A DNA stretch of 64,000 nt from a virus. The stretch lies in the IMG/VR virus record IMGVR_UViG_3300005613_000030, positions 22,608 through 86,607 of that record. The stretch is one strand, 5' to 3'. A model generated the notes under the pieces. It ran no database searches. It was not told the DNA's origin and saw only the letters and a list, made by a program, of their open reading frames with translations. Positions 226 to 57,918 of the stretch are shown in pieces (positions within the stretch are counted from its first letter, which is position 1; every line of letters starts with the position of its first letter). Both the position numbers and the translations under genes were made by a program.

Positions 226-3200
226 ATGAATCTCTGCTGGATTGACTTAGAAACAACTGGACTCGATGAAAGAAAACACGATGTTATTCAGTTAGCTTGT
301 ATTCCGGTTATTAATGGTGTTCGTCAAAAAGCATTTAATGAATTTTGTCAACCATCTAATTGGGACACAATTGAACAAGAAGCATTAAATGTCCATGGGA
401 TTTCAAGGGAACAGTTAGCGACATTTCAATCGCAAGAGCAAATGCTAAATAATTTCATAGCTTATGTTAGTTCTTTTAATACTCGTTTTGGTATTGCTGG
501 ACATAATGTTGCTTTCTTTGACAAAAGATTTTTATCAACCTTGTTTAAAAATTATAATAAAAATAATGCGTTTTTTGCATTATTTAATTTAACTGTGCAT
601 GATACATTAGTACGAGCTAGATCATTAAAGGGTGTCTTAAAGACTGAAAATAATAAATTAGAGACATTAGCTAATCATTTTAATATTGAAATTCAAGCGC
701 ACGATGCATTATCTGATATATCTGCAAATATTGATGTTGACCGTGAATTAGCGAAAATATTACAAGAAAGCACTGAATTATATAAACCATCTATCGATAA
801 AAATAATATAGAAATCAATGAGAAGTTACCAGAACCAATGCAATTACACTTGCACTCTCAATATTCAATGGCAGGTGCAATTCCTACACCTGAAGATTGG
901 GCTAAATGGTGCGAAGAAAATGATGTTCCTGGTTTTTCTGTTGTTGATCATGGTTATGCTATATCTTTATTTCAAGTGGCTAATAATAAATCTAAAGTAG
1001 TCAGTATTCCAGGTGCTTGTTTAAATTTTAAATTTAATTTAGAAGATGAGGATTTTTATCACTTAAATATTTGGGGAGTTAATACAGCTGGATATTTTAA
1101 TGTAATGAAGTTAACATCATTGGGATGGGATAGTTTCATTACTCATGATAAAAAAGATATACCAATTATTACATTTCAGCAGATATTAGATCACAGAGAG
1201 GGATTGAAATTTGGAACAGCTGATATAGAAGGATATGTAGGTAAAGCAATTATTGAGGGAAAAGCTGAGATTGCGGAATTGAGATATAAGCAATTAATTC
1301 AAAGCTTTGGAAACGATCTATATATTGAATTTAATCCAATTGACATCACGCATTACTATGATAAAAAGATAGGATTTAAACCTGTAAGTAGCAATGCTAT
1401 AATTACAGACAATAATTCACAGAAAGCATATAATAACTTTTTATTTAGCATGCTACAATATGGAGGTAAACCAATTCCTGTATCAGGTGCTTGTTTTATT
1501 GATCATGATGATAAAATTCTGCAAGATTGCATATGTAAAAACAATAATAAAGATGGTAAATTCTTCCAAGAATCATATCACGCTAAAACTGCTAATACAT
1601 TATATAAAGAATTAAAAGTCCACTTACATGATAAAGACTTCGATATCTGTGTGTTTAAAGAGTGGATACAGAATACCATGGAATTTCATAAATCTGCAAC
1701 TGATATATCTGTGTCGTTTAAGTATCATTTAGCAGAGATAGAAATACCAGAGCATATAAAAACACAAACTTCTAGTTACGATGAGCAATTATATTTGTAT
1801 ACATTAGAACGTATTAAAAAACATGGACGATGGAATAATAGCGATAAATACCGTGAACGATTCTTAAAAGAATTAGATGTTATTGCTAAAAATAAAGCCA
1901 TGAATTTCTTACCTTACTTTTTAATGTATGATGATTTCGGTGAATTTGCAAGAAATCAAGGCTTTTTACAAAATATAGCACGTGGTTCTGCTGGTGGTTC
2001 ATTGCTATCGTATTACCTCAAGATTATCCACGTTGATCCTGTTGATAAGGATATCCCATTTGAACGTTTTTTATCTCATGCACGTATTAATGCTGGTTCA
2101 TGGCCAGACATTGATATGGATATATCTAAGTCCGCTAGACCACATTTAATGAGGTATATGAAACAAAAATATGGATCAGGTTTTGCACAAGTGGCTACAT
2201 TTTCTACTATGAAAACTAAAAATGCAATAAAAGACACAATGAAAGCTCTTTATGGACGAAATAGAAAAGATTTTGAAGTAGAAGCTGTATGCAAATCAAT
2301 CCCAGATTCTCCACAAGGTGTATCTGAAGCTAATTTCTTGTATGGGTATGAAGATAAAGAAGGGCATTATCATGAAGGTCAACTAGATACCAATCAACAT
2401 TTACAGACATTTTTTGAGCTGTATCCCGATGTAGCGAGTGTAGTTAAGCGCTTAATCGGTGTGGTTAGAGGGCTTTCTCGGCACGCTTCAGCATTTGTTG
2501 TATCAACACTGGATCTTCCAGCAGAAAGAGTTCCTACATTAACTATGTATGATAAAGGTATGGGAGAGAATATCCATGTAACTCAATATGATGCATCTAT
2601 GTGTGAAAAATCTGAGTTAGTAAAGGCTGACGTCCTTGGATTAAAGACATTATCAGTTGTAACTGATGCCCTTAAATTAATCGAAGATGTCGATTATAGA
2701 GAGCCTGATGAAAATGGTATGAATTTAATATATCGTTTACCTGAGGATGAACAAGTATATGCGAATTTTTACAATAAAAAGACTGATTCATCATTCCAAT
2801 TTAATACACCTGTTGTAAAAGCATCAATACAGAATTTTATTCCAACTGAAAGAAAGCACTTATCTGCATTAACAGCACTGTTGCGACCTGGAGCTATGGA
2901 TGCTAAAATGACTAGTATTGACGGTTGCGATAATATGTCAGCTACTGAATACTACATGCAAGTTAGAAGTGGAACACGCCAAGTTGAATATATTCATCCA
3001 GATCTTGAATATATTTTAAAAGACTCCAACGGCGTGTTTTGCTTTCAAGAGGAAATTATGCAATTTTTGGTTGAAATAGTTGGTTATACTTTAGAAGAAT
3101 CTGACCAAATTAGAGCAGCAATTGCAAAAAAGAAACATGATGTGATGATGGCAGCATTTGATCGTATTAGGGCTGCAACAGCAGCACGAGGCTGGAGTAA

Positions 3201-4206
3201 TGAACAACAAGAGGCAATATGTAATGTTATTATGGCATTTTCACGTTATTCTTTCAATAAAAGCCATTCTCACGCATATGCAGAACTTGGATATATCACA
3301 ATGTATTTAAAGCATTATCATAAATTAGAATGGTGGGCAGCTGTTTTAAATAATGAAGATAATGAGGATAAATTGCGACATTATATTTCTATTTTAGGTG
3401 ATTTAATTAAGCCGCCTTCAATGAAAAGCCCTATGGAAAGATTCACTATTAATGGCGAATATATAGTTGCACCAATATCAGTGATAAAAGGCGTTGGCCC
3501 TAAGACATATAATGAATTAACTGAAAAAGGGCCATTTACTGATATTCAAGATTATTGTAATAGAGTTGATCATCGTAAAGCAGATATCGGTGCAGTAAGC
3601 ATGCTGATTATGGCTCGTGCTGCAGATGATTTTATGGATAAAACTCTTGATTATGTAAGTGCTCGTTTTAAATTTATGGATGATTATAAAAAAGCTCGTG
3701 GGAATATTAAAACAAATTTTAAACCAGAATTAATAGCAAAAGATCCCTTAGATATATTGCTATTAGAGAAAAAAGCAAATACAGCTTTCAATAAAAGTGT
3801 TTTATCAGAGCCTGATTTAATGAATTTGATCCTATCAAAATGGAAGGGATTACAGCAAACAGGTAGAAAAGGCATACCATTGATGTTAAACGGTATACCA
3901 ATTTTAACTAATGTTAATGTTGCAGTTGGACTATTAGAAAAGAATTATGAAAAAGATATAGGTATGATTCTATTATGTGAAAAATCAGCTGTCCGTAAAG
4001 GGATATCTAAACGTACAGGGAAACCATATTGTTTTGTTAGTACTACATTAAATGACGGCTTTATGGACGTTGAGGCAACTGACTGGAATGCTAAAATTGC
4101 CTATAAATTCCCTAAAAATAGCTTAGTATATGTGCGTGGTGAGATAAAACAAGGTTGGAAGGCACCGATTTGTATAAATATAAAAGAAATTGAATTAATT
4201 GAATAA
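226..4206 (+). CDS. dnaE: Family-C DNA polymerase (DnaE/Pol III alpha-like) with N-terminal fused DEDDh 3'-5' exonuclease
   Basis: Exonuclease motifs IDLETTG, GHNVAFFD and HDALSD; PHP motifs LHLHSQYS and VDHG; RGSAGGSL; FERFL; catalytic PDIDMD and KADVLGL; FQEEIM; YSFNKSHS; C-terminal OB-like region. Confidence 0.95.
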   Translation: MNLCWIDLETTGLDERKHDVIQLACIPVINGVRQKAFNEFCQPSNWDTIEQEALNVHGISREQLATFQSQEQMLNNFIAYVSSFNTRFGIAGHNVAFFDKRFLSTLFKNYNKNNAFFALFNLTVHDTLVRARSLKGVLKTENNKLETLANHFNIEIQAHDALSDISANIDVDRELAKILQESTELYKPSIDKNNIEINEKLPEPMQLHLHSQYSMAGAIPTPEDWAKWCEENDVPGFSVVDHGYAISLFQVANNKSKVVSIPGACLNFKFNLEDEDFYHLNIWGVNTAGYFNVMKLTSLGWDSFITHDKKDIPIITFQQILDHREGLKFGTADIEGYVGKAIIEGKAEIAELRYKQLIQSFGNDLYIEFNPIDITHYYDKKIGFKPVSSNAIITDNNSQKAYNNFLFSMLQYGGKPIPVSGACFIDHDDKILQDCICKNNNKDGKFFQESYHAKTANTLYKELKVHLHDKDFDICVFKEWIQNTMEFHKSATDISVSFKYHLAEIEIPEHIKTQTSSYDEQLYLYTLERIKKHGRWNNSDKYRERFLKELDVIAKNKAMNFLPYFLMYDDFGEFARNQGFLQNIARGSAGGSLLSYYLKIIHVDPVDKDIPFERFLSHARINAGSWPDIDMDISKSARPHLMRYMKQKYGSGFAQVATFSTMKTKNAIKDTMKALYGRNRKDFEVEAVCKSIPDSPQGVSEANFLYGYEDKEGHYHEGQLDTNQHLQTFFELYPDVASVVKRLIGVVRGLSRHASAFVVSTLDLPAERVPTLTMYDKGMGENIHVTQYDASMCEKSELVKADVLGLKTLSVVTDALKLIEDVDYREPDENGMNLIYRLPEDEQVYANFYNKKTDSSFQFNTPVVKASIQNFIPTERKHLSALTALLRPGAMDAKMTSIDGCDNMSATEYYMQVRSGTRQVEYIHPDLEYILKDSNGVFCFQEEIMQFLVEIVGYTLEESDQIRAAIAKKKHDVMMAAFDRIRAATAARGWSNEQQEAICNVIMAFSRYSFNKSHSHAYAELGYITMYLKHYHKLEWWAAVLNNEDNEDKLRHYISILGDLIKPPSMKSPMERFTINGEYIVAPISVIKGVGPKTYNELTEKGPFTDIQDYCNRVDHRKADIGAVSMLIMARAADDFMDKTLDYVSARFKFMDDYKKARGNIKTNFKPELIAKDPLDILLLEKKANTAFNKSVLSEPDLMNLILSKWKGLQQTGRKGIPLMLNGIPILTNVNVAVGLLEKNYEKDIGMILLCEKSAVRKGISKRTGKPYCFVSTTLNDGFMDVEATDWNAKIAYKFPKNSLVYVRGEIKQGWKAPICINIKEIELIE

Positions 4207-10154: not shown

Positions 10155-10470
10155 TATTATTGATCAAGCCCTTGATGCATATGAAGAAGGCTTTATTGCT
10201 AAGTGTATTTTGATACATCCAGTGCGATATCGCGAGTTATCACATGAATTACAGAAACGTAGTACGCGTAATAGTGTGCAGCATTGTGCGCCACAATATC
10301 AAGTTGTCTCACTTACACTACCGATGGGGCAAGTTGAATTAAAACTTGATAAAACAATCCCGCGTGATGGAGATGGTTTTTATATTGAGGGGCATAAAAA
10401 ACACATACTACATAAGATGCATCAGCAGGCTAATAAAATCTTATTAGGAGATATTGAAGATGAGCTTTAA
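10129..10470 (+). CDS. Hypothetical protein
   Basis: ORF overlapping the recA 3' end. Confidence 0.55.
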   Translation: MTIKSILDNIIDQALDAYEEGFIAKCILIHPVRYRELSHELQKRSTRNSVQHCAPQYQVVSLTLPMGQVELKLDKTIPRDGDGFYIEGHKKHILHKMHQQANKILLGDIEDEL

Positions 10471-10918
10471 ATACCATAAAATAAAGAATTTCTTATCAAT
10501 CGCAAAAGCAGTCGCAGAACAATCTCCTGATGCTGAAACTAAAGTTGGAGCAATATTAGTAAAAAATACTACTAATGCAGTTATAGCAACTGGGTTTAAC
10601 GGTTTTGTTCGTAAGGCACCGGATAAAAAGCTACCAAAAACTCGTCCTGATAAATATGAATATATGATTCATGCAGAAGTAAATCTAATTTTTAATTGTG
10701 CAAAAGAAGGCATTTCTACGGAAGATACCACTCTAATATGCACTATGAGTCCTTGTGAAAACTGTATGCGCGCATTATGGCAATGCGGTGTAACAAGAGT
10801 GGTCTGTGATAAACTATACACTGACCATGAAGATAATAAAGGTCTAAAAGATTTAGGATTAAAAGTACATAAACACGATTCATATTATATATTAGATTTT
10901 ATTGCTAAGGAGAAATAG
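10460..10918 (+). CDS. dCMP deaminase
   Basis: KVGAILV, TGFNG, HAEVN and SPCENC zinc-deaminase motifs. Confidence 0.9.
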   Translation: MSFKYHKIKNFLSIAKAVAEQSPDAETKVGAILVKNTTNAVIATGFNGFVRKAPDKKLPKTRPDKYEYMIHAEVNLIFNCAKEGISTEDTTLICTMSPCENCMRALWQCGVTRVVCDKLYTDHEDNKGLKDLGLKVHKHDSYYILDFIAKEK

Positions 10919-18767: not shown

Positions 18768-19508
18768 ATGTTTGACGAATCAGATTACATTAAGAAGGGA
18801 AATCATAAATATTTTAAAGCTGTTTGCAATACTTGTGGTAAAGACAGAGGATATCAGCGATTATCTAGTGTAATTCGAAACTGTTTATCATGTGCTACAA
18901 AGAAGAGATTATCTGATCCTAAAAATAACCCTATGTATGGTAAAAAACATAAAAATACAGCGCAGTTCCGCAAAGATACATATAGCAATGTTGATTATAG
19001 TGATACTAAAATACGTTACAGTAAAAATGGTAATAAGTGTATTACCTATAAACAAAGATGTCCAATATGCAATAAAAGCGTTGGATATAGGCGTCATATT
19101 GATGCTAAACGCACATGTCGAGCATGTCAAAGCGATAAGTTACGTAAATACTCTAAAGAACATAAACGAATACGTTACTCAATGAAAGCTAATTTACACT
19201 CTAGGCTGAAGCAGCATTTAATTAATAAGAATAAGAAATCTACGTTCGATATATTAGGGTATACTGTAAATGACTTAAAAATACACTTAGAATCACTATG
19301 GGAACCGTGGATGTCTTGGGATAATTATGGCGCTTATTGTTCATATAAAAGAACATGGCAAATTGATCATATTAAACCAGATAGTTTATTTAATTATGAA
19401 TCGATAACAGATCCGGAATTTAAAGAGTGCTGGAGTTTAAGTAATTTACAACCCTTAGATAGCTTTAAGAACTTAAAAAAAGGCAACAAATATAATAAAT
19501 CAGTATAA
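18768..19508 (+). CDS. HNH-like endonuclease with Zn fingers and NUMOD3-like motif
   Basis: NNPMYGKKH; WQIDHIKP...CWSLSNLQPL...NLKKGNK. Confidence 0.85.
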   Translation: MFDESDYIKKGNHKYFKAVCNTCGKDRGYQRLSSVIRNCLSCATKKRLSDPKNNPMYGKKHKNTAQFRKDTYSNVDYSDTKIRYSKNGNKCITYKQRCPICNKSVGYRRHIDAKRTCRACQSDKLRKYSKEHKRIRYSMKANLHSRLKQHLINKNKKSTFDILGYTVNDLKIHLESLWEPWMSWDNYGAYCSYKRTWQIDHIKPDSLFNYESITDPEFKECWSLSNLQPLDSFKNLKKGNKYNKSV

Positions 19509-19546: not shown

Positions 19547-20380
19547 ATGACTTGGATTTGTTTAGAGGGCGTCGATCGTACGGGTAAAAGCTCTGTTGCT
19601 GAATATTACAAAACTCAAGGATACGAAGTTGTACATATGAATGCGCCAGATAAAAAGTATTCAGAACCAGGATATACTGGTCCTGGTTATGTCGATGAAT
19701 TATTAGAGACATATATGCAATATGATGGTAAAAAAGTAATTTTTGACCGTACTATCTATGGTGAAAAAGTATGGCCTACAGTTTTTGGTCGTAAATCAAA
19801 ATTATCTGATGAAGATTTTGATGCACTAAAGGACTTTGAAGATCAAAATGATACACAGTACATTTTAATGCATGATCCAAATTTTGAAGCTCATTGGCAA
19901 CGATGTGTAGACTGTAATGAACCATTAACTCGTTCACAATTTAATACAGCAATTGCTATGTATGAAAGGTTAATTAATGACGGCTTCGAAAAAAGAACTC
20001 TCCCCGACTTCAACACAGAAATATCAAGCTTATCAACAGAGAGAGTCGTGGAGGAATCTGATGTATCTGCTGTACAAACTGGAGATAATACAAAACCTAC
20101 TACAGACGTTTATAAACAATCCTCAGCAGTGGAAAAATCCACCCCAGTAGAAAAACGATTACAAAAAGCTAACGCTATTAATACAATATTAAGTAGTAGA
20201 ATTGTTAAACGAAAAGGTGATATATTTGATGACCTTGAAAAAGATATTCGTAATTTTTTAAACAGCAAATTAGATAGTATATTTGGCAATGAACAAAATA
20301 AAACGTTTACAGACGAGCAAGTGTTGATTCTAAAATCAATGGCGGATCGCATTGTAGAGAAACAAAAGGGGCAAAAATGA
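19547..20380 (+). CDS. Thymidylate-kinase-like dNMP kinase
   Basis: ICLEGVDRTGKSS P-loop; IFDRTIYGE. Confidence 0.75.
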   Translation: MTWICLEGVDRTGKSSVAEYYKTQGYEVVHMNAPDKKYSEPGYTGPGYVDELLETYMQYDGKKVIFDRTIYGEKVWPTVFGRKSKLSDEDFDALKDFEDQNDTQYILMHDPNFEAHWQRCVDCNEPLTRSQFNTAIAMYERLINDGFEKRTLPDFNTEISSLSTERVVEESDVSAVQTGDNTKPTTDVYKQSSAVEKSTPVEKRLQKANAINTILSSRIVKRKGDIFDDLEKDIRNFLNSKLDSIFGNEQNKTFTDEQVLILKSMADRIVEKQKGQK

Positions 20381-30626: not shown

Positions 30627-31109
30627 ATGGAAGAGATTGTTATAAATTGTAAATGCTTAGATTGCGGTTTGCAATATATGAGTAAAGATATAGAATCTAC
30701 CTGTGTATGCGGTAGTACAAATCATGAAGTAATTAATGATTTTGGAAAAGTTAAAAAAAATTCTAATGAAATAGATGGTAATGCTCAAAGATTTAATGAT
30801 AATAAACTAATGATGAATCTTGTTCCTGTATCAGCTGTTAATTCACTAGCACGGGTATTAACGTATGGTGCTAAAAAATATGATGCTGATAACTGGAGAA
30901 GAGGTTTTAATTATAGTGTTCCATATGCATGCTTAATGCGCCATATGATGGCATTTTGGGATGGTGAAGATATAGATCCAGAATCAGGGCTATCTCACCT
31001 AGATCATGCTATAGCTAATTTAGCAATGCTAATTGAATTTGAACGTGAATGTCCACATCTAGATGATCGTTGGACGACACGCGTAAAACAGAATAAGGCA
31101 GAGAAATGA
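30627..31109 (+). CDS. dATP/dGTP diphosphohydrolase-domain protein (DUF5664-like) with N-terminal Zn ribbon
   Basis: GAKKY..DNWRRG, LMRH and GEDIDPESGLSHLDHA motifs. Confidence 0.85.
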   Translation: MEEIVINCKCLDCGLQYMSKDIESTCVCGSTNHEVINDFGKVKKNSNEIDGNAQRFNDNKLMMNLVPVSAVNSLARVLTYGAKKYDADNWRRGFNYSVPYACLMRHMMAFWDGEDIDPESGLSHLDHAIANLAMLIEFERECPHLDDRWTTRVKQNKAEK

Positions 31110-50170: not shown

Positions 50171-50779
50171 TTATATAGTGATTATCTTCTTCAATGAATT
50201 AATCGTTTTCCAATCTGCCTTTAATAATTGTTCAATAGCAAATCTATATGCTTCTACGGGTTTAGGTAGGTCTTTTTGTTTGATATATAGTAACCAATTA
50301 TGCAAAGATCCATGAACAAGTGCAGTTGTGTACATACTAACTGGCATTTGAGTTTGTGATATAGCTTTATTACAACCATCCATTGTCATTCCTTTACTAT
50401 TTAAAATTAATGCTTCGGTAGTGGTGGCCATGTATTCACTTATTTCTCTTGCTTTATCTAAATCATCACATTCAATCTCTGATATATTTGGTAAATATGC
50501 ATCTTGATTAGCGTCTGTGATTGGAATGATCTCTAAATTGAATCTAGATATATTTAAATGTACAAAAATTGGCATCTTTACAATAAATGTGGCATTAGCT
50601 ATACGTAATAATTGAATTTTAAAATCAGTGCCAAAATAAGTAGACTGTATACGCTCTAGCTCTTTACCGGTATTAGTTGATGAAATACAACTAACATGAC
50701 CTTTATCGAGTACTGGTTGTAAATTAGTTAATATATCTGATTCTTTTTTCTCTGAAAGCTTAACATTTTTTTTAGTCAT
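50171..50779 (-). CDS. Degenerate ThyX-fold protein
   Basis: VLDKGHV, ATFIVKMPIFV and MPVSMYT..HGSLHNW match the ThyX framework; the RHRx7S catalytic motif is absent. Confidence 0.6.
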   Translation of the reverse strand: MTKKNVKLSEKKESDILTNLQPVLDKGHVSCISSTNTGKELERIQSTYFGTDFKIQLLRIANATFIVKMPIFVHLNISRFNLEIIPITDANQDAYLPNISEIECDDLDKAREISEYMATTTEALILNSKGMTMDGCNKAISQTQMPVSMYTTALVHGSLHNWLLYIKQKDLPKPVEAYRFAIEQLLKADWKTINSLKKIITI

Positions 50780-51834: not shown

Positions 51835-52059
51835 TTATTTCTCCAATAATATTCTATCCACTTCTTCACTAGTTTCTTGACCATCAGTAATGTTATTAAT
51901 CAAATTCCATATAATATTCTGTAATACTCTTTTTAGTTCCATATTAACATGCTCTGCATGATTAAAAGCTGTTTGATGTTCATCGCACGCCCGTATATTT
52001 AAATCATTAATTGTACATATAAGATCATTATATAATTGCTCTCTATCTTTCTTCAGCAT
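51835..52059 (-). CDS. Hypothetical protein
   Basis: Coupled ORF. Confidence 0.5.
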   Translation of the reverse strand: MLKKDREQLYNDLICTINDLNIRACDEHQTAFNHAEHVNMELKRVLQNIIWNLINNITDGQETSEEVDRILLEK

Positions 52060-52432
52060 CTTCGTCGCTCCCTGTTAATATTTTTGCTTTCATAGTTTTA
52101 TTATTAGTTAACTGTGATTCAAACGTGGCTTCAAAAACAATATTTTCCCAATGAGCTTCTAAATAATCTGTAGTATCTTCATCTAAAAATTGATTTAACT
52201 CATTCTCATTAGTTGTTAAAATAATAACTTTAGCATGATGTTGATGTTCAGTATACATTTTTCCAACGCGCTCTACCATATTGGAGAAATCGTATGGACC
52301 TTTAATAGTACTACATAGCATTTTACATTTATCTCTTTCACCTGTATTTACACCAACAATAAAAGACTTATCATATAACTCTGACAAATCCATTTCACCT
52401 TCATGTAGTTCTGCAATAAAATCTTTACTCAT
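52043..52432 (-). CDS. Hypothetical protein
   Basis: GTATAAT promoter (52449-52455) and SD ggagg. Confidence 0.6.
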   Translation of the reverse strand: MSKDFIAELHEGEMDLSELYDKSFIVGVNTGERDKCKMLCSTIKGPYDFSNMVERVGKMYTEHQHHAKVIILTTNENELNQFLDEDTTDYLEAHWENIVFEATFESQLTNNKTMKAKILTGSDEDAEER

Positions 52433-53361: not shown

Positions 53362-54147
53362 CTAATATTTGTTACTTTTCTTTAAATTATCTTTAGCCCA
53401 TAGTGGTTGTAAGTTGCTTAATGCATTTACTTTTTCTATATCAAAGCATTTATTCTTAATGAACCAATCAATTGGTTTGATATGGTCTATATGCCATTTG
53501 CCATAGTTATCCCAAGTCATACCTGTAGTAAATTTAGACTCAAAGTGCATTTTAAATTCTTGCCAAGTATAGCCTAATATATCTTTTGTCTTTCGATTAG
53601 CCTTAACAAATCCACCTTTCTTGCATACATTAGTCATATTACTGCTAAATATTTTTCTAATTTTTTGGCATTCAAGATAATATGCTCTATTATCTTTAAC
53701 GTATCTACCATTGTTAATACCAGATCGTTTATTATTTTTAAACGAGCATTTTCTACATTGTGCAGCTGTAGTTGTCTTTTTATTACCACATTGAGGGCAC
53801 ACACTATTACCCGTCCAAGCAGGGTTTTTATTACCCATTTTGTTATTAGATCTTACTATTTTTAAGCATATACCACAATATTTACGCTTACTAGGAATAG
53901 TAATACTACATATATTACATTTACCCTGCATAACCTGCGCTTTCCCATATTTCTCACTAATTATATATCCTTGCTTTATAGAAAAACACTTTCGACACAA
54001 ACCAGATCCATTAATACAATCTCGATATTGCTTTAAATGCTCTCTTTTGCAATTATCGCATTGAAACCATACTTTCTTGCCACTACCATTAGATAGTGTT
54101 TTAATATCAATTTTTAGATCTTTAAGAGTTTTATCAATATTAATCAC
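53362..54147 (-). CDS. HNH-like endonuclease with multiple Zn fingers
   Basis: GSGKKVWFQC zinc ribbon; WHIDHIKP...NLQPLWAKDNLKKSNKY. Confidence 0.85.
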   Translation of the reverse strand: MINIDKTLKDLKIDIKTLSNGSGKKVWFQCDNCKREHLKQYRDCINGSGLCRKCFSIKQGYIISEKYGKAQVMQGKCNICSITIPSKRKYCGICLKIVRSNNKMGNKNPAWTGNSVCPQCGNKKTTTAAQCRKCSFKNNKRSGINNGRYVKDNRAYYLECQKIRKIFSSNMTNVCKKGGFVKANRKTKDILGYTWQEFKMHFESKFTTGMTWDNYGKWHIDHIKPIDWFIKNKCFDIEKVNALSNLQPLWAKDNLKKSNKY

Positions 54148-54887
54148 TACTTACCCATCATTTTCTCAACAATTTTGAAACTTCTTTCATAAATATGCAA
54201 TGAATCAGAGCTAAAAGTGAAAGTACCAATAGATAGATCTTCATAACTATCTTTTAATTCATTCAACATCGTTTCTTGTAATCGAATAAAGAACGGCCAA
54301 TCGTAAACCACTCCAAAGTGTAAATCTGAACTACGCATGCGAACTGTAAAATTTAACTTATTATCTCTAATATGAAAATTAGAATACATAGTACATACAA
54401 AATCTTTATTACCAACATAACAATGCTTTGGCTTATTAAAACGCATAATAGCTTGACGTGTGTCTTTATCTCTTAATAATGATATTTTTGCCCATTCAAA
54501 AGGAGTACGTAAGCAATCTGGATTAGGTTCCATTACTGGCCAACCTTCAGATTCATCCTGTAACACTAAGTGCCCATAGTTAGAATTAATAGTTCCATCA
54601 GGGTTAGCGAGTTGTCCCCAAAACTTAGATATTTTAACGGCATCTTCTACATCTCTAGATCCACTTAAATACCATTTCATTTCATTTTTAGTGTAACGAT
54701 CGATGACACTGTTTCGTTCAGTATCTTTAGTTATGATTGACTCAGACTTAGGATTTAAGATCATAACTTGATAATTCATCTTTTCTCTAATTGCCATCCC
54801 ACGCGGTGAGCACATAAATTCTGGATTATTATATACATCTGCCAAAGTTCCTAAATATGCCTCATGTATATTGTTATATCTCTTCAC
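54147..54887 (-). CDS. Thymidylate-synthase-family enzyme with dCMP-hydroxymethylase (T4 gp42)-like signature
   Basis: INSNYG, DFVCT, RSSDLHFGVVYD and SLHIYE motifs. Confidence 0.8.
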   Translation of the reverse strand: MKRYNNIHEAYLGTLADVYNNPEFMCSPRGMAIREKMNYQVMILNPKSESIITKDTERNSVIDRYTKNEMKWYLSGSRDVEDAVKISKFWGQLANPDGTINSNYGHLVLQDESEGWPVMEPNPDCLRTPFEWAKISLLRDKDTRQAIMRFNKPKHCYVGNKDFVCTMYSNFHIRDNKLNFTVRMRSSDLHFGVVYDWPFFIRLQETMLNELKDSYEDLSIGTFTFSSDSLHIYERSFKIVEKMMGK

Positions 54888-55116: not shown

Positions 55117-55497
55117 TTATTCATCATTATTATACTCACGTAATACCTCTTCCAAGTTATTAACCCAACATCCGTAACCCATTGATTTTTTAGTTAATTT
55201 CTTCATTAATTGACCAATTCTATTAAAAAGATGACCATATACAAAAGTACTTTCTTTAGCTTTTCTTGTGCTATCATAATTTTTTAATGCAATCACTACT
55301 TCACATCTAAGGTGCTGACGAATATCATTCATAGTGTAGCCAGAATTACCTAATGCTGTATCACCATCATATTTTTTAATACTTGCTTCATTCCAATTCT
55401 TGATAACGCTTTTTCTTAACCACGATTCAATCATGGGGTCATATTTTTTAATATCTTCATTAGTTACAACTCTATTGGTTCTAGTTTTAGTAGCCAT
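55117..55497 (-). CDS. Sigma70 region-2-only protein
   Basis: MNDIRQ...ALKNYD..RKAKESTFVYGHLFN. Confidence 0.55.
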   Translation of the reverse strand: MATKTRTNRVVTNEDIKKYDPMIESWLRKSVIKNWNEASIKKYDGDTALGNSGYTMNDIRQHLRCEVVIALKNYDSTRKAKESTFVYGHLFNRIGQLMKKLTKKSMGYGCWVNNLEEVLREYNNDE

Positions 55498-55507
55498 ACT
55501 TACTTCC

Positions 55508-56002
55508 TTATTTTAAATATTTCTTAATTAATTGTGTTAATAACATTAACATGATTGCGTTATATTTTTTCGTCTCGGTTGCATCACGCTTATTATATCT
55601 AGTATTCATCCAATAACTATATATTGACAATACAGAGTTATTAAGCTCTATACAGTCATTGCAATTACGGCGTATAAGATCATAAAGTTGGTTATAAAGT
55701 TTTGTTTGTCTAACCCGTTTTACAGATGATACATTTCTTAATATACATAATAGCTCACTATTCACATTACTCATTAATTGATCGTATGTTCTTTTTGTAT
55801 CAATAGTGTACTTCATTGTAGATTTATCTAATCGTTGCTGCACATTGTTAATAATAAGTTGTGAAAATGCGTTTTCACCGTGATACTCTACAGCATCATT
55901 GCAACTAAAAAATAAATTACCATATGAATCAGTTAAATTAAATTTAGATGCACTTGGTTTGATTGATTCTATTTCTTTTTTAATGAACTCAACATTTTTC
56001 AT
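55508..56002 (-). CDS. Hypothetical protein
   Basis: SD gaggag. Confidence 0.55.
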   Translation of the reverse strand: MKNVEFIKKEIESIKPSASKFNLTDSYGNLFFSCNDAVEYHGENAFSQLIINNVQQRLDKSTMKYTIDTKRTYDQLMSNVNSELLCILRNVSSVKRVRQTKLYNQLYDLIRRNCNDCIELNNSVLSIYSYWMNTRYNKRDATETKKYNAIMLMLLTQLIKKYLK

Positions 56003-56724
56003 AACTCCTCCTCATTATCTAAGCTATAAATTGGTGCTCCATTTAACATTAAGATCTTAAACATGCAGAGATTCTTAACTGCAGCCATGTTATTATGACG
56101 AATATAACTCACTAACCAATCAGTGAATTTAATGCCTAAATTGTAATTACGTATATTAATTCTTTGCTCTTTAAACTGGGTTAATAACCCGTCAATAAGT
56201 AAAGTTCGTTTATTTCGCATTGAACGCATTCTGTTCATGCCTGTAATATCGAATATCTCAGCAATCTCATTAATGTTAGCTTTATGACACTCACTAGCTC
56301 GATATGTTGCATTGCGTAATTTTCTTTTTAAATTGTGTATAATTTTCTCTAATAGTTCTTTGTCAGACATGCCATCACGGCATTTCTTTAAAGTTACTTG
56401 CCCAACTAAAACACCTTCATCAAAATCGATATAACATTCATCAGCGAAATTAGGAGTAACTTGGATTTTAAAGAAATCGCATAAATTAAAAGTATCGAAT
56501 TTACTGCAATCGATCTCTAATTGATTAGCTAGTTTTCTGATTATGGATTGAGGCCTAATTGAATCAATATTCCAATATCCAGCAGCACTTAATGATTTAA
56601 TCATTTCATAGTCTAAGTTGATTTCTTCTGGTACTTTTCTTAACTCATCATTGAAATCGCACTGAAAAGGCTCAATCATCTTAGATATATCATCTAAATT
56701 TTCAAAAACACTATCAGTAAACAT
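55999..56724 (-). CDS. Hypothetical protein (start at 56724 after ggagg)
   Basis: SD position. Confidence 0.55.
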   Translation of the reverse strand: MFTDSVFENLDDISKMIEPFQCDFNDELRKVPEEINLDYEMIKSLSAAGYWNIDSIRPQSIIRKLANQLEIDCSKFDTFNLCDFFKIQVTPNFADECYIDFDEGVLVGQVTLKKCRDGMSDKELLEKIIHNLKRKLRNATYRASECHKANINEIAEIFDITGMNRMRSMRNKRTLLIDGLLTQFKEQRINIRNYNLGIKFTDWLVSYIRHNNMAAVKNLCMFKILMLNGAPIYSLDNEEEL

Positions 56725-56776
56725 ATAACCTCCAAAAAAACACATATTATTGGTATGGTAATATATCGAATCGGTT

Positions 56777-56965
56777 TTATTTTTTAGGTCCGTAATAGAA
56801 TTCTGGTGAGGTATCGTCGTTATATTGCTCTTGAGCTTGTGGGTGATGAACACGTAGATAATTATGAATTAAACTTAGGATATCACCCCATTGCATATCA
56901 TGCTCAATACACATTTCTTCGGTGATTTCTTCAATATCAGAAATTATATCGCCTAACGGTCGCAC
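56777..56965 (-). CDS. Hypothetical protein
   Basis: GTG start overlapping the upstream stop. Confidence 0.5.
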   Translation of the reverse strand: MRPLGDIISDIEEITEEMCIEHDMQWGDILSLIHNYLRVHHPQAQEQYNDDTSPEFYYGPKK

Positions 56966-57219: not shown

Positions 57220-57918
57220 CTACTTTGGGTTAACATCGGGTAATTCCCGTAATATTTCATAAATATCTCTAATTCTTTTAATATCACCATCTTCTACTTC
57301 TATATTCATTTCAGTTGCTATTTCATCTAAATTACGATTATGAGCTGCATCTACTAAAAATACGTTTTTCACTTTACTTTTATCCATAACCTTTAATACT
57401 GTTTGAGCACGATCGTCAGCAAAAGCTCGAATATTGTATCGTTTACTTAATTCTTTAAGAATTTTAACTTTGTCACTAGAAAAATGTAATTCATCATATA
57501 CGACTTTTTGATGCATGGCATTAATTTCAGTTTGTTCTTTATATTTCTCATCTCTAGCTGTTAGTATTATGACTTTATAACCCAACGTTCTCATATCGTA
57601 TATTGCTTTTCTAGCCTCTCTAATAACTGGTAATGAAGCATAAATTCCATGCTTTTCATATGTCTTAAAGGTGTTCATTAATTCTTCACCAGTGACAGTA
57701 TTACCTCTTGCATCTGTTAATGATACTCCTTTAAAACCCCAACCTTTGACGTCGTTTTTAGTCATGCATGTTCCATTATAGAGATTATGAACTGAACATA
57801 AGAAGCCCATGAAATCGACGACTGTGTCGTCGTAATCTAAGACAACCGCATGAGGTTTACGTTTACGTTTTGGCTTATCATTCTTCATTTCTGATGCCTT
57901 TGGTTGAGTTTCTATCAT
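57220..57918 (-). CDS. HAD-family 5'(3')-deoxyribonucleotidase (NT5C-like)
   Basis: VLDYDDTVVD, ILTAR, K and FADD motifs. Confidence 0.8.
   Translation of the reverse strand: MIETQPKASEMKNDKPKRKRKPHAVVLDYDDTVVDFMGFLCSVHNLYNGTCMTKNDVKGWGFKGVSLTDARGNTVTGEELMNTFKTYEKHGIYASLPVIREARKAIYDMRTLGYKVIILTARDEKYKEQTEINAMHQKVVYDELHFSSDKVKILKELSKRYNIRAFADDRAQTVLKVMDKSKVKNVFLVDAAHNRNLDEIATEMNIEVEDGDIKRIRDIYEILRELPDVNPK

Follow-up and report, generated by a model that had tools for sequence, protein, structure and literature searches.

The DNA analysed here, a window of 64 kb that forms the right-hand part of an 86.6-kb viral contig from IMG/VR, encodes at 54147-54887 a member of the thymidylate synthase (TS) family which is probably a folate-dependent C5-hydroxymethylase of deoxycytidine monophosphate (dCMP), employing the chemistry of gp42 of phage T4 and serving a virion DNA that would contain 5-hydroxymethylcytosine (5hmC). 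The open reading frame (ORF) specifies 246 residues between a GTG start codon, which has a TAGGAG Shine-Dalgarno sequence 5 nt to its 5′ side, and a TAG stop codon. An initial annotation of the window had pointed to the motifs DFVCT, INSNYG and SLHIYE together with RSSDLHFGVVYD; all are present in the ORF, and HMMER aligns them to sDFMCT, INSNYG, SLHVY and RSNDVVFGFRND of T4 dCMP hydroxymethylase. That annotation had also read a preference for cytosine from an Asp at the position of Asn177 of E. coli ThyA. The MAFFT alignment does place D196 on Asn177 (and C165 on Cys146), and the cytosine specificity was upheld in every residue test that we ran.

Fold and active site of the TS homologue

Judged by sequence, the match of the protein to the TS-fold/hydroxymethylase family is far above chance. 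Pfam PF00303 (Thymidylat_synt) matches with E=3e-12 (E=5.7e-14 in a six-frame genome search) and phrog_160 with E=1e-32. A phmmer search of the PDB returned T4 dCMP hydroxymethylase (1b49) at E=3e-18 and the CMP hydroxymethylase MilA at 8e-18; the best entry named thymidylate synthase (7e-6) is actually the dCMP hydroxylase of phage HY126, and ThyA entries of the E. coli type reach no better than 1e-3. An AlphaFold2 (AF2) model, built with 40 homologues, has a predicted local distance difference test score (pLDDT) of 95.5 and a predicted template modelling score (pTM) of 0.92. Foldseek searches with this model place MilA first (template modelling score, TM, 0.81) and T4 dCMP hydroxymethylase next (TM 0.72), followed by ThyA entries, in each case with a probability of 1.0, indicating that the thymidylate synthase (ThyA) fold is present.

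The active site was scored at 13 positions in a MAFFT alignment with enzymes from public records, with residues numbered as in E. coli ThyA. The protein carries E58, Y94, R126, D143, C146, T147, R166, S167, D169, D177, H207 and Y209, which in its own numbering are E69, Y104, R144, D162, C165, T166, R185, S186, D188, D196, H231 and Y233. It shares the residue of T4 gp42 at 12 of the 13 positions, differing only at R127, which is Gln here and likewise in SPO1 gp29 and ViI. The nucleophilic Cys and the general acid/base residues Glu58 and Tyr94 (C165, E69 and Y104) are present and are invariant or nearly so in 263 homologues, all of which have D143 (263/263), with D169 and R126 each in 259 and S167 in 258; at position 177, 251 homologues carry Asp and eight carry Asn. 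A pocket of the deoxyribose type, formed by S186, R144, H231 and Y233, is also present. The residues that best discriminate between the reference enzymes are given in Table 1.

Table 1. Diagnostic positions (E. coli ThyA numbering) and C-terminal tails, counted as the residues after the Tyr209 equivalent. PaMx74, described as fully substituted with 5-methylcytosine (5mC), is the 5mC-type reference.
Enzyme	143	147	169	177	C-tail (residues)
TS homologue of the window	D	T	D	D	14
T4 gp42	D	T	D	D	29
dUMP hydroxymethylases SPO1 gp29, M6, ViI and phiW-14 (n=4)	D	N	D	N	
E. coli ThyA, RB69 td	L	H	D	N	56 (E. coli ThyA)
RB69 gp48 (5-hydroxy-dCMP synthase)	E	T	N	D	
PaMx74	N	P	D	D	62

The C-terminus of ThyA closes the active site for hydride transfer, and the near absence of a ThyA-like tail therefore fits a hydroxymethylase. 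According to published work, an enzyme with Asp in place of Asn177 is selective for dCMP, hydroxymethyl products go together with an acidic residue at Leu143 (as a correlation only), and replacement of Asp169 by Asn is the mark of flavin-dependent 5-hydroxy-dCMP synthases (PMC13326640). Metavirome contigs with modified cytosine are told apart from unmodified ones most clearly at positions 177 and 147 (PMC8670742), whilst Ser167 with Arg126′ is a sign of deoxyribose use and Ala with Lys of ribose use (PMC5175136). Combined, the published rules at positions 143, 147, 167, 169 and 177 give one unambiguous predicted product: D169 argues against 5-hydroxy-dCMP, D143 and the nearly absent tail argue against 5-methyl-dCMP, and 5-hydroxymethyl-dCMP is left. 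The three products that had been entertained initially are thereby narrowed to the first of them, the 5-methyl and 5-hydroxy forms being disfavoured.

No close relative was found among cultured phages. The best phage record is an unannotated 462-kb metagenomic phage (45% identity to the TS homologue), after which come RsoM2USA, Xp15, an Aeromonas T4-like gp42 and Acinetobacter phages at 33-36% identity. Identity is 28.5% to T4 gp42 and 21% to PaMx74, with gp42, Xp15 and RsoM2USA spanning 28-37%. Metagenomic relatives are plentiful: among the clusters (90% identity) sharing words with the protein, 1095 match at E<=1e-5, the nearest with 65% identity, and 1123 representatives from clustering at 50% identity score E<=1e-10. 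We placed the protein in a quick IQ-TREE phylogeny of 87 sequences rooted on ThyA, where it lies inside a starred clade of 43 metagenomic sequences, on the side of the tree that holds T4 gp42, RB69 gp48 and the clade of Xp15, Effie and RsoM2USA, and outside the starred clade of dUMP hydroxymethylases. The phylogenetic comparison with gp42 and the SPO1 enzymes that the initial annotation proposed thus puts the protein on the gp42 side and apart from the dUMP enzymes, but does not group it strictly with gp42; the tree supports a distinct, uncharacterised clade of apparently cytosine type and not monophyly with gp42 in the strict sense.

Genomic setting

The TS homologue is the sole TS-family gene of the contig in a Pfam search of its whole length, and an ORF of the same size (18768-19508, 246 aa), considered as a second copy, was ruled out by that search; no true ThyX or ThyA was found in the contig. 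An alignment-based scan of IMG/VR confirmed 554 related stretches, of which 80 loci were kept, and three from a single-protein scan brought the set to 83. ORF clustering of these loci shows that in approximately 50 of the 83 a dCMP deaminase gene is no more than 10 kb away from the TS homologue, and that in 31 a thymidylate kinase (TMK)-like kinase is beside it. Around 20 of the closest loci (L012-L043, L062; 45-53% identity) have the block c26 - c15 - TS - c16 - c9 - c23 - deaminase, in which the c numbers denote clustered ORFs.

We searched the full sequences of 11 syntenic relatives (97-177 kb), among them five with a completeness of at least 91% and two with terminal repeats. All 11 encode exactly one TS-family gene, a dCMP deaminase occurs in all 12 genomes of the group (the contig and its 11 relatives), and seven of the 11 have a dUTPase. 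A true, strong ThyX is encoded elsewhere in the genome in eight of the 11, and because these phages carry ThyX in addition to a lone TS-family gene, the TS homologue is dispensable for dTMP there, and most of the group does not depend on it as a source of dTMP. True ThyX and ThyA are both lacking in G001, the closest of the complete relatives, a genome of 166.6 kb with terminal repeats.

The conserved neighbour c9 is kept two to six genes downstream of the TS homologue in at least 16 related phages. As a single sequence it has no Pfam or PHROG match, whereas a profile of 16 homologues finds the ThyX of T. maritima (2e-9), and its AF2 model (pLDDT 87) matches ThyX structures with TM 0.74. A protein atlas places c9 among viral Thy1-like clusters; its family comprises ~39 unannotated clusters, with true ThyX sequences appearing only at E values of 1e-7 or weaker. 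Alignment with true ThyX reveals that the N-terminal LDxGxV and KxPxF are kept, and that three elements have been replaced: HTSPFE, the ThyX motif RHR...S.RY and the two arginines that follow. The protein is thus predicted, by profile and model, to have a ThyX fold and is unlikely to be a thymidylate synthase; its membership of the modification pathway is inferred from linkage only.

Directly upstream of the TS homologue in nearly all syntenic relatives is c15, which is unusually well conserved, with a mean column identity of 56% and 84% identity to the closest relative; its consensus resembles region 2 of sigma factors, by eye only. Searches of Pfam, PHROGs and PDB profiles gave nothing usable for c26, c15 or c16, and the protein atlas gave nothing for c26. 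On the other side, the TAG stop codon of the TS homologue shares 1 nt with the GTG start codon of a zinc-finger/HNH endonuclease gene. This gene is a mobile passenger, outside the pathway, and its placement suggests homing-endonuclease traffic at the TS gene, comparable to that at the nucleotide-metabolism genes of T4. In one related locus (L042), homologues of the endonuclease are found on both flanks of the TS gene.

Table 2. Coordinates of the features discussed. Positions refer to the window; those with the prefix L108 lie upstream of it.
Feature	Position	Strand	Size or evidence
TS-fold enzyme, predicted dCMP C5-hydroxymethylase (5hm-dCMP synthase)	54147..54887	minus	motifs, profiles, model, alignments
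Zinc-finger/HNH homing-type endonuclease	53362..54147	minus	phrog_1035, phrog_28061
c16	52043-52432		
Degenerate ThyX-fold protein c9	50171..50779	minus	202 aa; profile, AF2 model, protein atlas
c15	55117-55497	minus	126 aa
c26	55999-56853		
HAD-superfamily/NT5C (deoxy)nucleotidase-like protein	57220..57918	minus	232 aa; PF03767, PF06941; phrog_420, 415, 2643
PolC-like family-C replicative polymerase	226..4206	plus	exonuclease + PHP + Pol III alpha + fingers + HhH
dCMP deaminase family protein	10454..10918	plus	154 aa; PF00383 E=8e-22; phrog_174 E=2e-35; PDB 2hvv, 7fh4 E~1e-16
Thymidylate-kinase-like P-loop protein	19547..20380	plus	277 aa; phrog_761 E=1.6e-5; EGVDRTGKS P-loop
DUF5664/dGTP_diPhyd_N protein	30627..31109	plus	PF18909; phrog_801 (dATP/dGTP pyrophosphohydrolase) E=2e-39
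ResIII/DEAD helicase	L108:8514-11042	plus	842 aa; split by intein with LAGLIDADG endonuclease domain
Trimeric dUTPase	L108:12021-12560	plus	PF00692; best PDB matches all ordinary dUTPases
N6/N4 DNA methyltransferase	L108:12682-13398	plus	PF01555
GroEL/Cpn60-like chaperonin	L108:14118-15818	plus	

Several other genes for nucleotide metabolism and replication are present (Table 2), including the dCMP deaminase, the HAD nucleotidase and the family-C polymerase that had been named in the initial annotation. The nucleotidase is a putative nucleotide-pool enzyme, and the deaminase probably supplies dUMP, or possibly deaminates a modified nucleotide. For the proposed deoxynucleoside monophosphate (dNMP) kinase, the P-loop is confirmed and the profile match is weak, with no Pfam match; it is a candidate for the enzyme that takes 5hm-dCMP to the diphosphate. 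The DUF5664 diphosphohydrolase is also where it had been reported, but its link to the pathway did not hold: considered as the missing dCTPase, it has no BLASTP similarity to T4 gp56, and PHROGs assign it to the dATP/dGTP pyrophosphohydrolases. Its gene follows the capsid gene, surrounded by other ORFs and at a distance from the remaining genes of nucleotide metabolism.

RecA is encoded in the contig, and DnaB and a primase are encoded upstream of the window. The major capsid protein is ~32% identical to its counterparts in SPO1-like Herelleviridae, pointing to an uncultured, distantly SPO1-like phage; a Megablast search with 19 kb of the window against a phage collection gave no match.

Predicted product and alternative chemistries

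The following mechanism is proposed. Cys165 would attack C6 of dCMP, with Asp196 reading the N3/4-amino face of the cytosine, and methylene-tetrahydrofolate, held with the help of Asp188, would give the one-carbon unit. With Asp162 at the mouth of the active site and no ThyA C-terminal lid, water instead of hydride would be added to the exocyclic methylene, resulting in 5-hydroxymethyl-dCMP. The thymidylate-kinase-like dNMP kinase of the phage, together with the nucleoside diphosphate (NDP) kinase of the host, would then form the triphosphate, and the PolC-type polymerase would accept 5hm-dCTP, such that 5hmC replaces some or all of the cytosine. The supply of dTTP would be kept up by the dCMP deaminase with ThyX (in most relatives) or a host enzyme. 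The data establish the fold, the residue pattern, its conservation across the clade and the gene linkage; from these the activity, the product, its incorporation into DNA and the degree of replacement are predicted.

A number of observations weigh against this assignment. The contig is only ~51% complete. No dCTPase was found in it, the dUTPase encoded upstream of the window resembling the ordinary enzymes of that family, and the replacement of cytosine may accordingly be partial. The deaminase lies 43 kb from the TS homologue in this genome and is not adjacent to it. The identity to gp42 is low, and monophyly with gp42 is unsupported, the deep forks of the tree being weakly supported and gp42 and gp48 forming long branches. 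Finally, the rule of an acidic residue at position 143 is correlative as published, and in PaMx74, the reference for 5mC, this position is occupied by Asn and not by a hydrophobic residue.

Searches for enzymes that would act on the modified base, and for a dCTP pyrophosphatase of the PRA-PH/MazG type, were mostly negative. The initial annotation had recognised no glycosyltransferase, and in the contig the searches for the beta-glucosyltransferase PF09198, for GT2 and for AGT remained empty. PF09198 is also absent from the 11 relatives (T4 and vipetofem serving as positive controls), as is AGT, for which the search had no positive control; GT2 occurs in one of the 11, and GT1, sought in the relatives and not in the contig, in none. 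No carbamoyltransferase was found in the contig or the 11 relatives, PRA-PH is missing from the contig and stayed below the cut-off in the relatives, and no arabinose/NDP-sugar genes were found. Unannotated genes could still carry out tailoring.

Modification could be followed by deamination, 5hm-dCMP being partly deaminated at the mono- or triphosphate level (to 5hm-dUMP or 5hm-dUTP) and 5-hydroxymethyluracil (hmU) entering the DNA, alone or with 5hmC; this would be the SPO1-like outcome reached by a different route, and we judge it improbable. Phages with hmU, of the SPO1/SP8 type, have a similar complement of genes (deaminase, dUTPase, nucleotidase, hydroxymethylase), which counts for such a route, as do the distantly SPO1-like capsid, the lack of true ThyX or ThyA in both G001 and this contig, and the presence of the deaminase throughout the group (12/12 genomes) and near the TS homologue in so many loci. 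Moreover, many deaminases linked to Asp-type TS homologues prefer 5m- or 5hm-dCTP, and seven made 5-hydroxymethyldeoxyuridine (5hmdU) in vivo (10.1101/2024.12.05.627091). Those published deaminases are, however, tied to 5mC phages making dTTP and not to genomes with hmU (10.1101/2024.12.05.627091), and the ordinary ThyX of eight of the 11 relatives fits normal dTMP synthesis, arguing against a general hmU route; the best solved relatives of the deaminase are ordinary or bifunctional dCMP deaminases, which do not discriminate.

In a second unlikely reading the protein methylates dCMP, functionally like the enzymes of Xp12 and PaMx74, and part of the resulting 5m-dCTP is converted into dTTP by the deaminase. 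Methyl and hydroxymethyl products cannot be told apart by Asp177 alone, five metavirome Asp-type homologues with linked deaminases made 5-methyldeoxycytidine (5mdC) (10.1101/2024.12.05.627091), and such a route would account for the missing ThyA and ThyX of G001. Against it, D143 shows no variation within the clade and is shared by every hydroxymethylase tested, where PaMx74 has Asn and ThyA Leu, and Thr147 is that of gp42 and not the Pro of PaMx74. The non-acidic residue 143 and ThyA-length tail of this type are absent here, with 14 residues compared with 56-62 in ThyA and PaMx74. The identity to PaMx74 (21%) is below the 28-37% to gp42, Xp15 and RsoM2USA, and PaMx74 is much nearer to the TS model, its six-frame Pfam E value being 5e-44 versus 5.7e-14.

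It is very improbable that the substrate of the protein is dUMP, which it would methylate like a thymidylate synthase or hydroxymethylate, or a ribonucleotide, as for MilA, with canonical cytosines left in the DNA. This would suit its position as the only TS-family gene in the contig, the rank of MilA as top structural match, and the annotation of some relatives in public records as thymidylate synthase or dUMP hydroxymethyltransferase. Those annotations are automatic, though, and the aligned relatives share the Asp/Thr pattern, whilst ThyX is additionally present in relatives. All uracil-type references have Asn177 with Asn or His at 147, where this protein has Asp and Thr: dUMP hydroxymethylases are marked by N147/N177 together with D143 (and the protein falls outside the starred clade of these enzymes), canonical ThyA by L143/H147/N177 and a C-terminal lid, and CMP hydroxymethylases (MilA/BcmA) by Ala167/Lys126′, the Ala176/Lys133 of MilA, which are Ser186/Arg144 here.

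Least credible of all is a flavin-dependent 5-hydroxy-dCMP synthase like RB69 gp48, DLP3 gp80 or HY126 AfhB: although Asp177, an acidic residue 143 and Thr147 are common to the protein and RB69 gp48, and the solved hydroxylase (9iqu/9iqc) matches structurally, the diagnostic N169 is absent (Asp188 here, and Asp in 259/263 homologues), the hydroxylase structures score worse than T4 dCMP hydroxymethylase and MilA (7e-6 versus 3e-18 by sequence; 4e-14 versus 1e-20 in Foldseek), and the searches gave neither arabinose/NDP-sugar genes nor, apart from the GT2 of one relative, glycosyltransferases.

With this protein the predicted dCMP hydroxymethylases gain a large metagenomic clade, which comprises over 1000 clusters when grouped at 90% identity. 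If the predicted product is correct, the DNA of these phages would be resistant to deamination by APOBEC or bisulfite and to many restriction enzymes, and sensitive to 5hmC-dependent nucleases; modified DNA of this kind bears on sequencing bias in viromes and on studies of host defence. Potentially new are two features: even in complete relatives neither a dCTPase nor a tailoring enzyme could be recognised, and the ThyX-like c9 is conserved. There is a small chance that this phage group (150-177 kb) employs a cytosine-type hydroxymethylase in an undescribed way, either with bare 5hmC in the absence of dCTPase and glycosyltransferase or with hmU formed by hydroxymethylation of dCMP and subsequent deamination; in both cases c9 would be a new functional partner and not a defunct paralogue.

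Comparison with known systems

T4 gp42 (PDB 1b49, 1b5d, 6a9a) is the best sequence match among solved structures; the two proteins have the same fold, the same length (246 aa) and a C-terminus that is short compared with ThyA. They differ in the tail (14 versus 29 residues), in Gln127 and in an identity of only 28.5%. The phages also differ, that of the window having a distantly SPO1-like capsid and a PolC-type polymerase, and neither the gp56-type dCTPase nor the alpha- and beta-glucosyltransferases of T4 were found in the contig (the search for AGT, the alpha enzyme, being without a control). MilA, from mildiomycin biosynthesis (PDB 5jnh, 5b6d), is similar in structure (TM 0.81) and has Asp at both 143 and 177 at 28% identity. 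It is a bacterial enzyme of secondary metabolism of ~320 aa, whose ribose residues Ala176/Lys133′ contrast with Ser186/Arg144 here, as in deoxyribose-specific enzymes.

Asp-type TS homologues and dCMP deaminases are the strongest markers of metavirome contigs shown experimentally to be cytosine-modified, a deaminase lying within 3 kb of the TS gene in 70% of modified compared with 6% of unmodified contigs (PMC8670742; 10.1101/2024.12.05.627091). The TS homologue shares with those of the MetaGPA contigs Asp177, a residue other than His at 147 and a viral metagenomic source, and its clade shares the linkage to a dCMP-family deaminase (PMC8670742; 10.1101/2024.12.05.627091). The MetaGPA neighbourhoods typically hold PRA-PH and PolA, and sometimes a carbamoyltransferase, whereas the window has a family-C polymerase and the contig neither PRA-PH nor carbamoyltransferase. 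The homologues tested in the preprint made 5mdC, whereas the present protein has the hydroxymethylase pattern. Pathways of this kind, which place 5hmC in phage DNA, have previously been described in many phages and metaviromes.

Two cultured phages have comparable genes under other names. Those of Agathobaculum phage AB434P2 (L095:2908-3570) and Bacillus phage G (gp319; L096:2986-4032) have the cytosine-type D143/T147/D177 pattern and are annotated as dUMP hydroxymethyltransferase or thymidylate synthase; gp319 adjoins a thymidylate kinase and a CMP/dCMP deaminase. The pattern suggests mis-annotation and possible cytosine modification in both phages.

The proteins of Xp15 (Xanthomonas), Effie (Acinetobacter) and RsoM2USA (Ralstonia) are among the closest from cultured phages (33-37% identity) and have the same pattern save Arg127, in a separate starred clade; we found no reported DNA chemistry for the three. 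In Xp15, genes for a dCMP deaminase and a carbamoyltransferase adjoin the TS homologue; no carbamoyltransferase was found in the present group. Enterococcus phage vipetofem, a siphovirus of 85 kb, shares the 13-position pattern except for R127 (Arg in vipetofem, Gln here) at ~31% identity, and in the tree falls on the other side, in a nine-row group that also holds dUMP hydroxymethylases. A T4-like beta-glucosyltransferase adjoins its TS homologue, where the contig and its 11 relatives have none. The initial annotation had set the pairing of a modified cytosine with a family-C polymerase against the family-B enzyme of T4. That pairing is not novel, being already on record for vipetofem, which has a 1293-aa polymerase of the Pol III alpha type and whose sister phages VPE25 and VFW have bisulfite-resistant cytosines. 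By analogy, the fact that distant relatives with the same signature, in vipetofem and Xp15, adjoin genes for the tailoring of 5hmC counts in favour of a dCMP hydroxymethylase in the phage described here.

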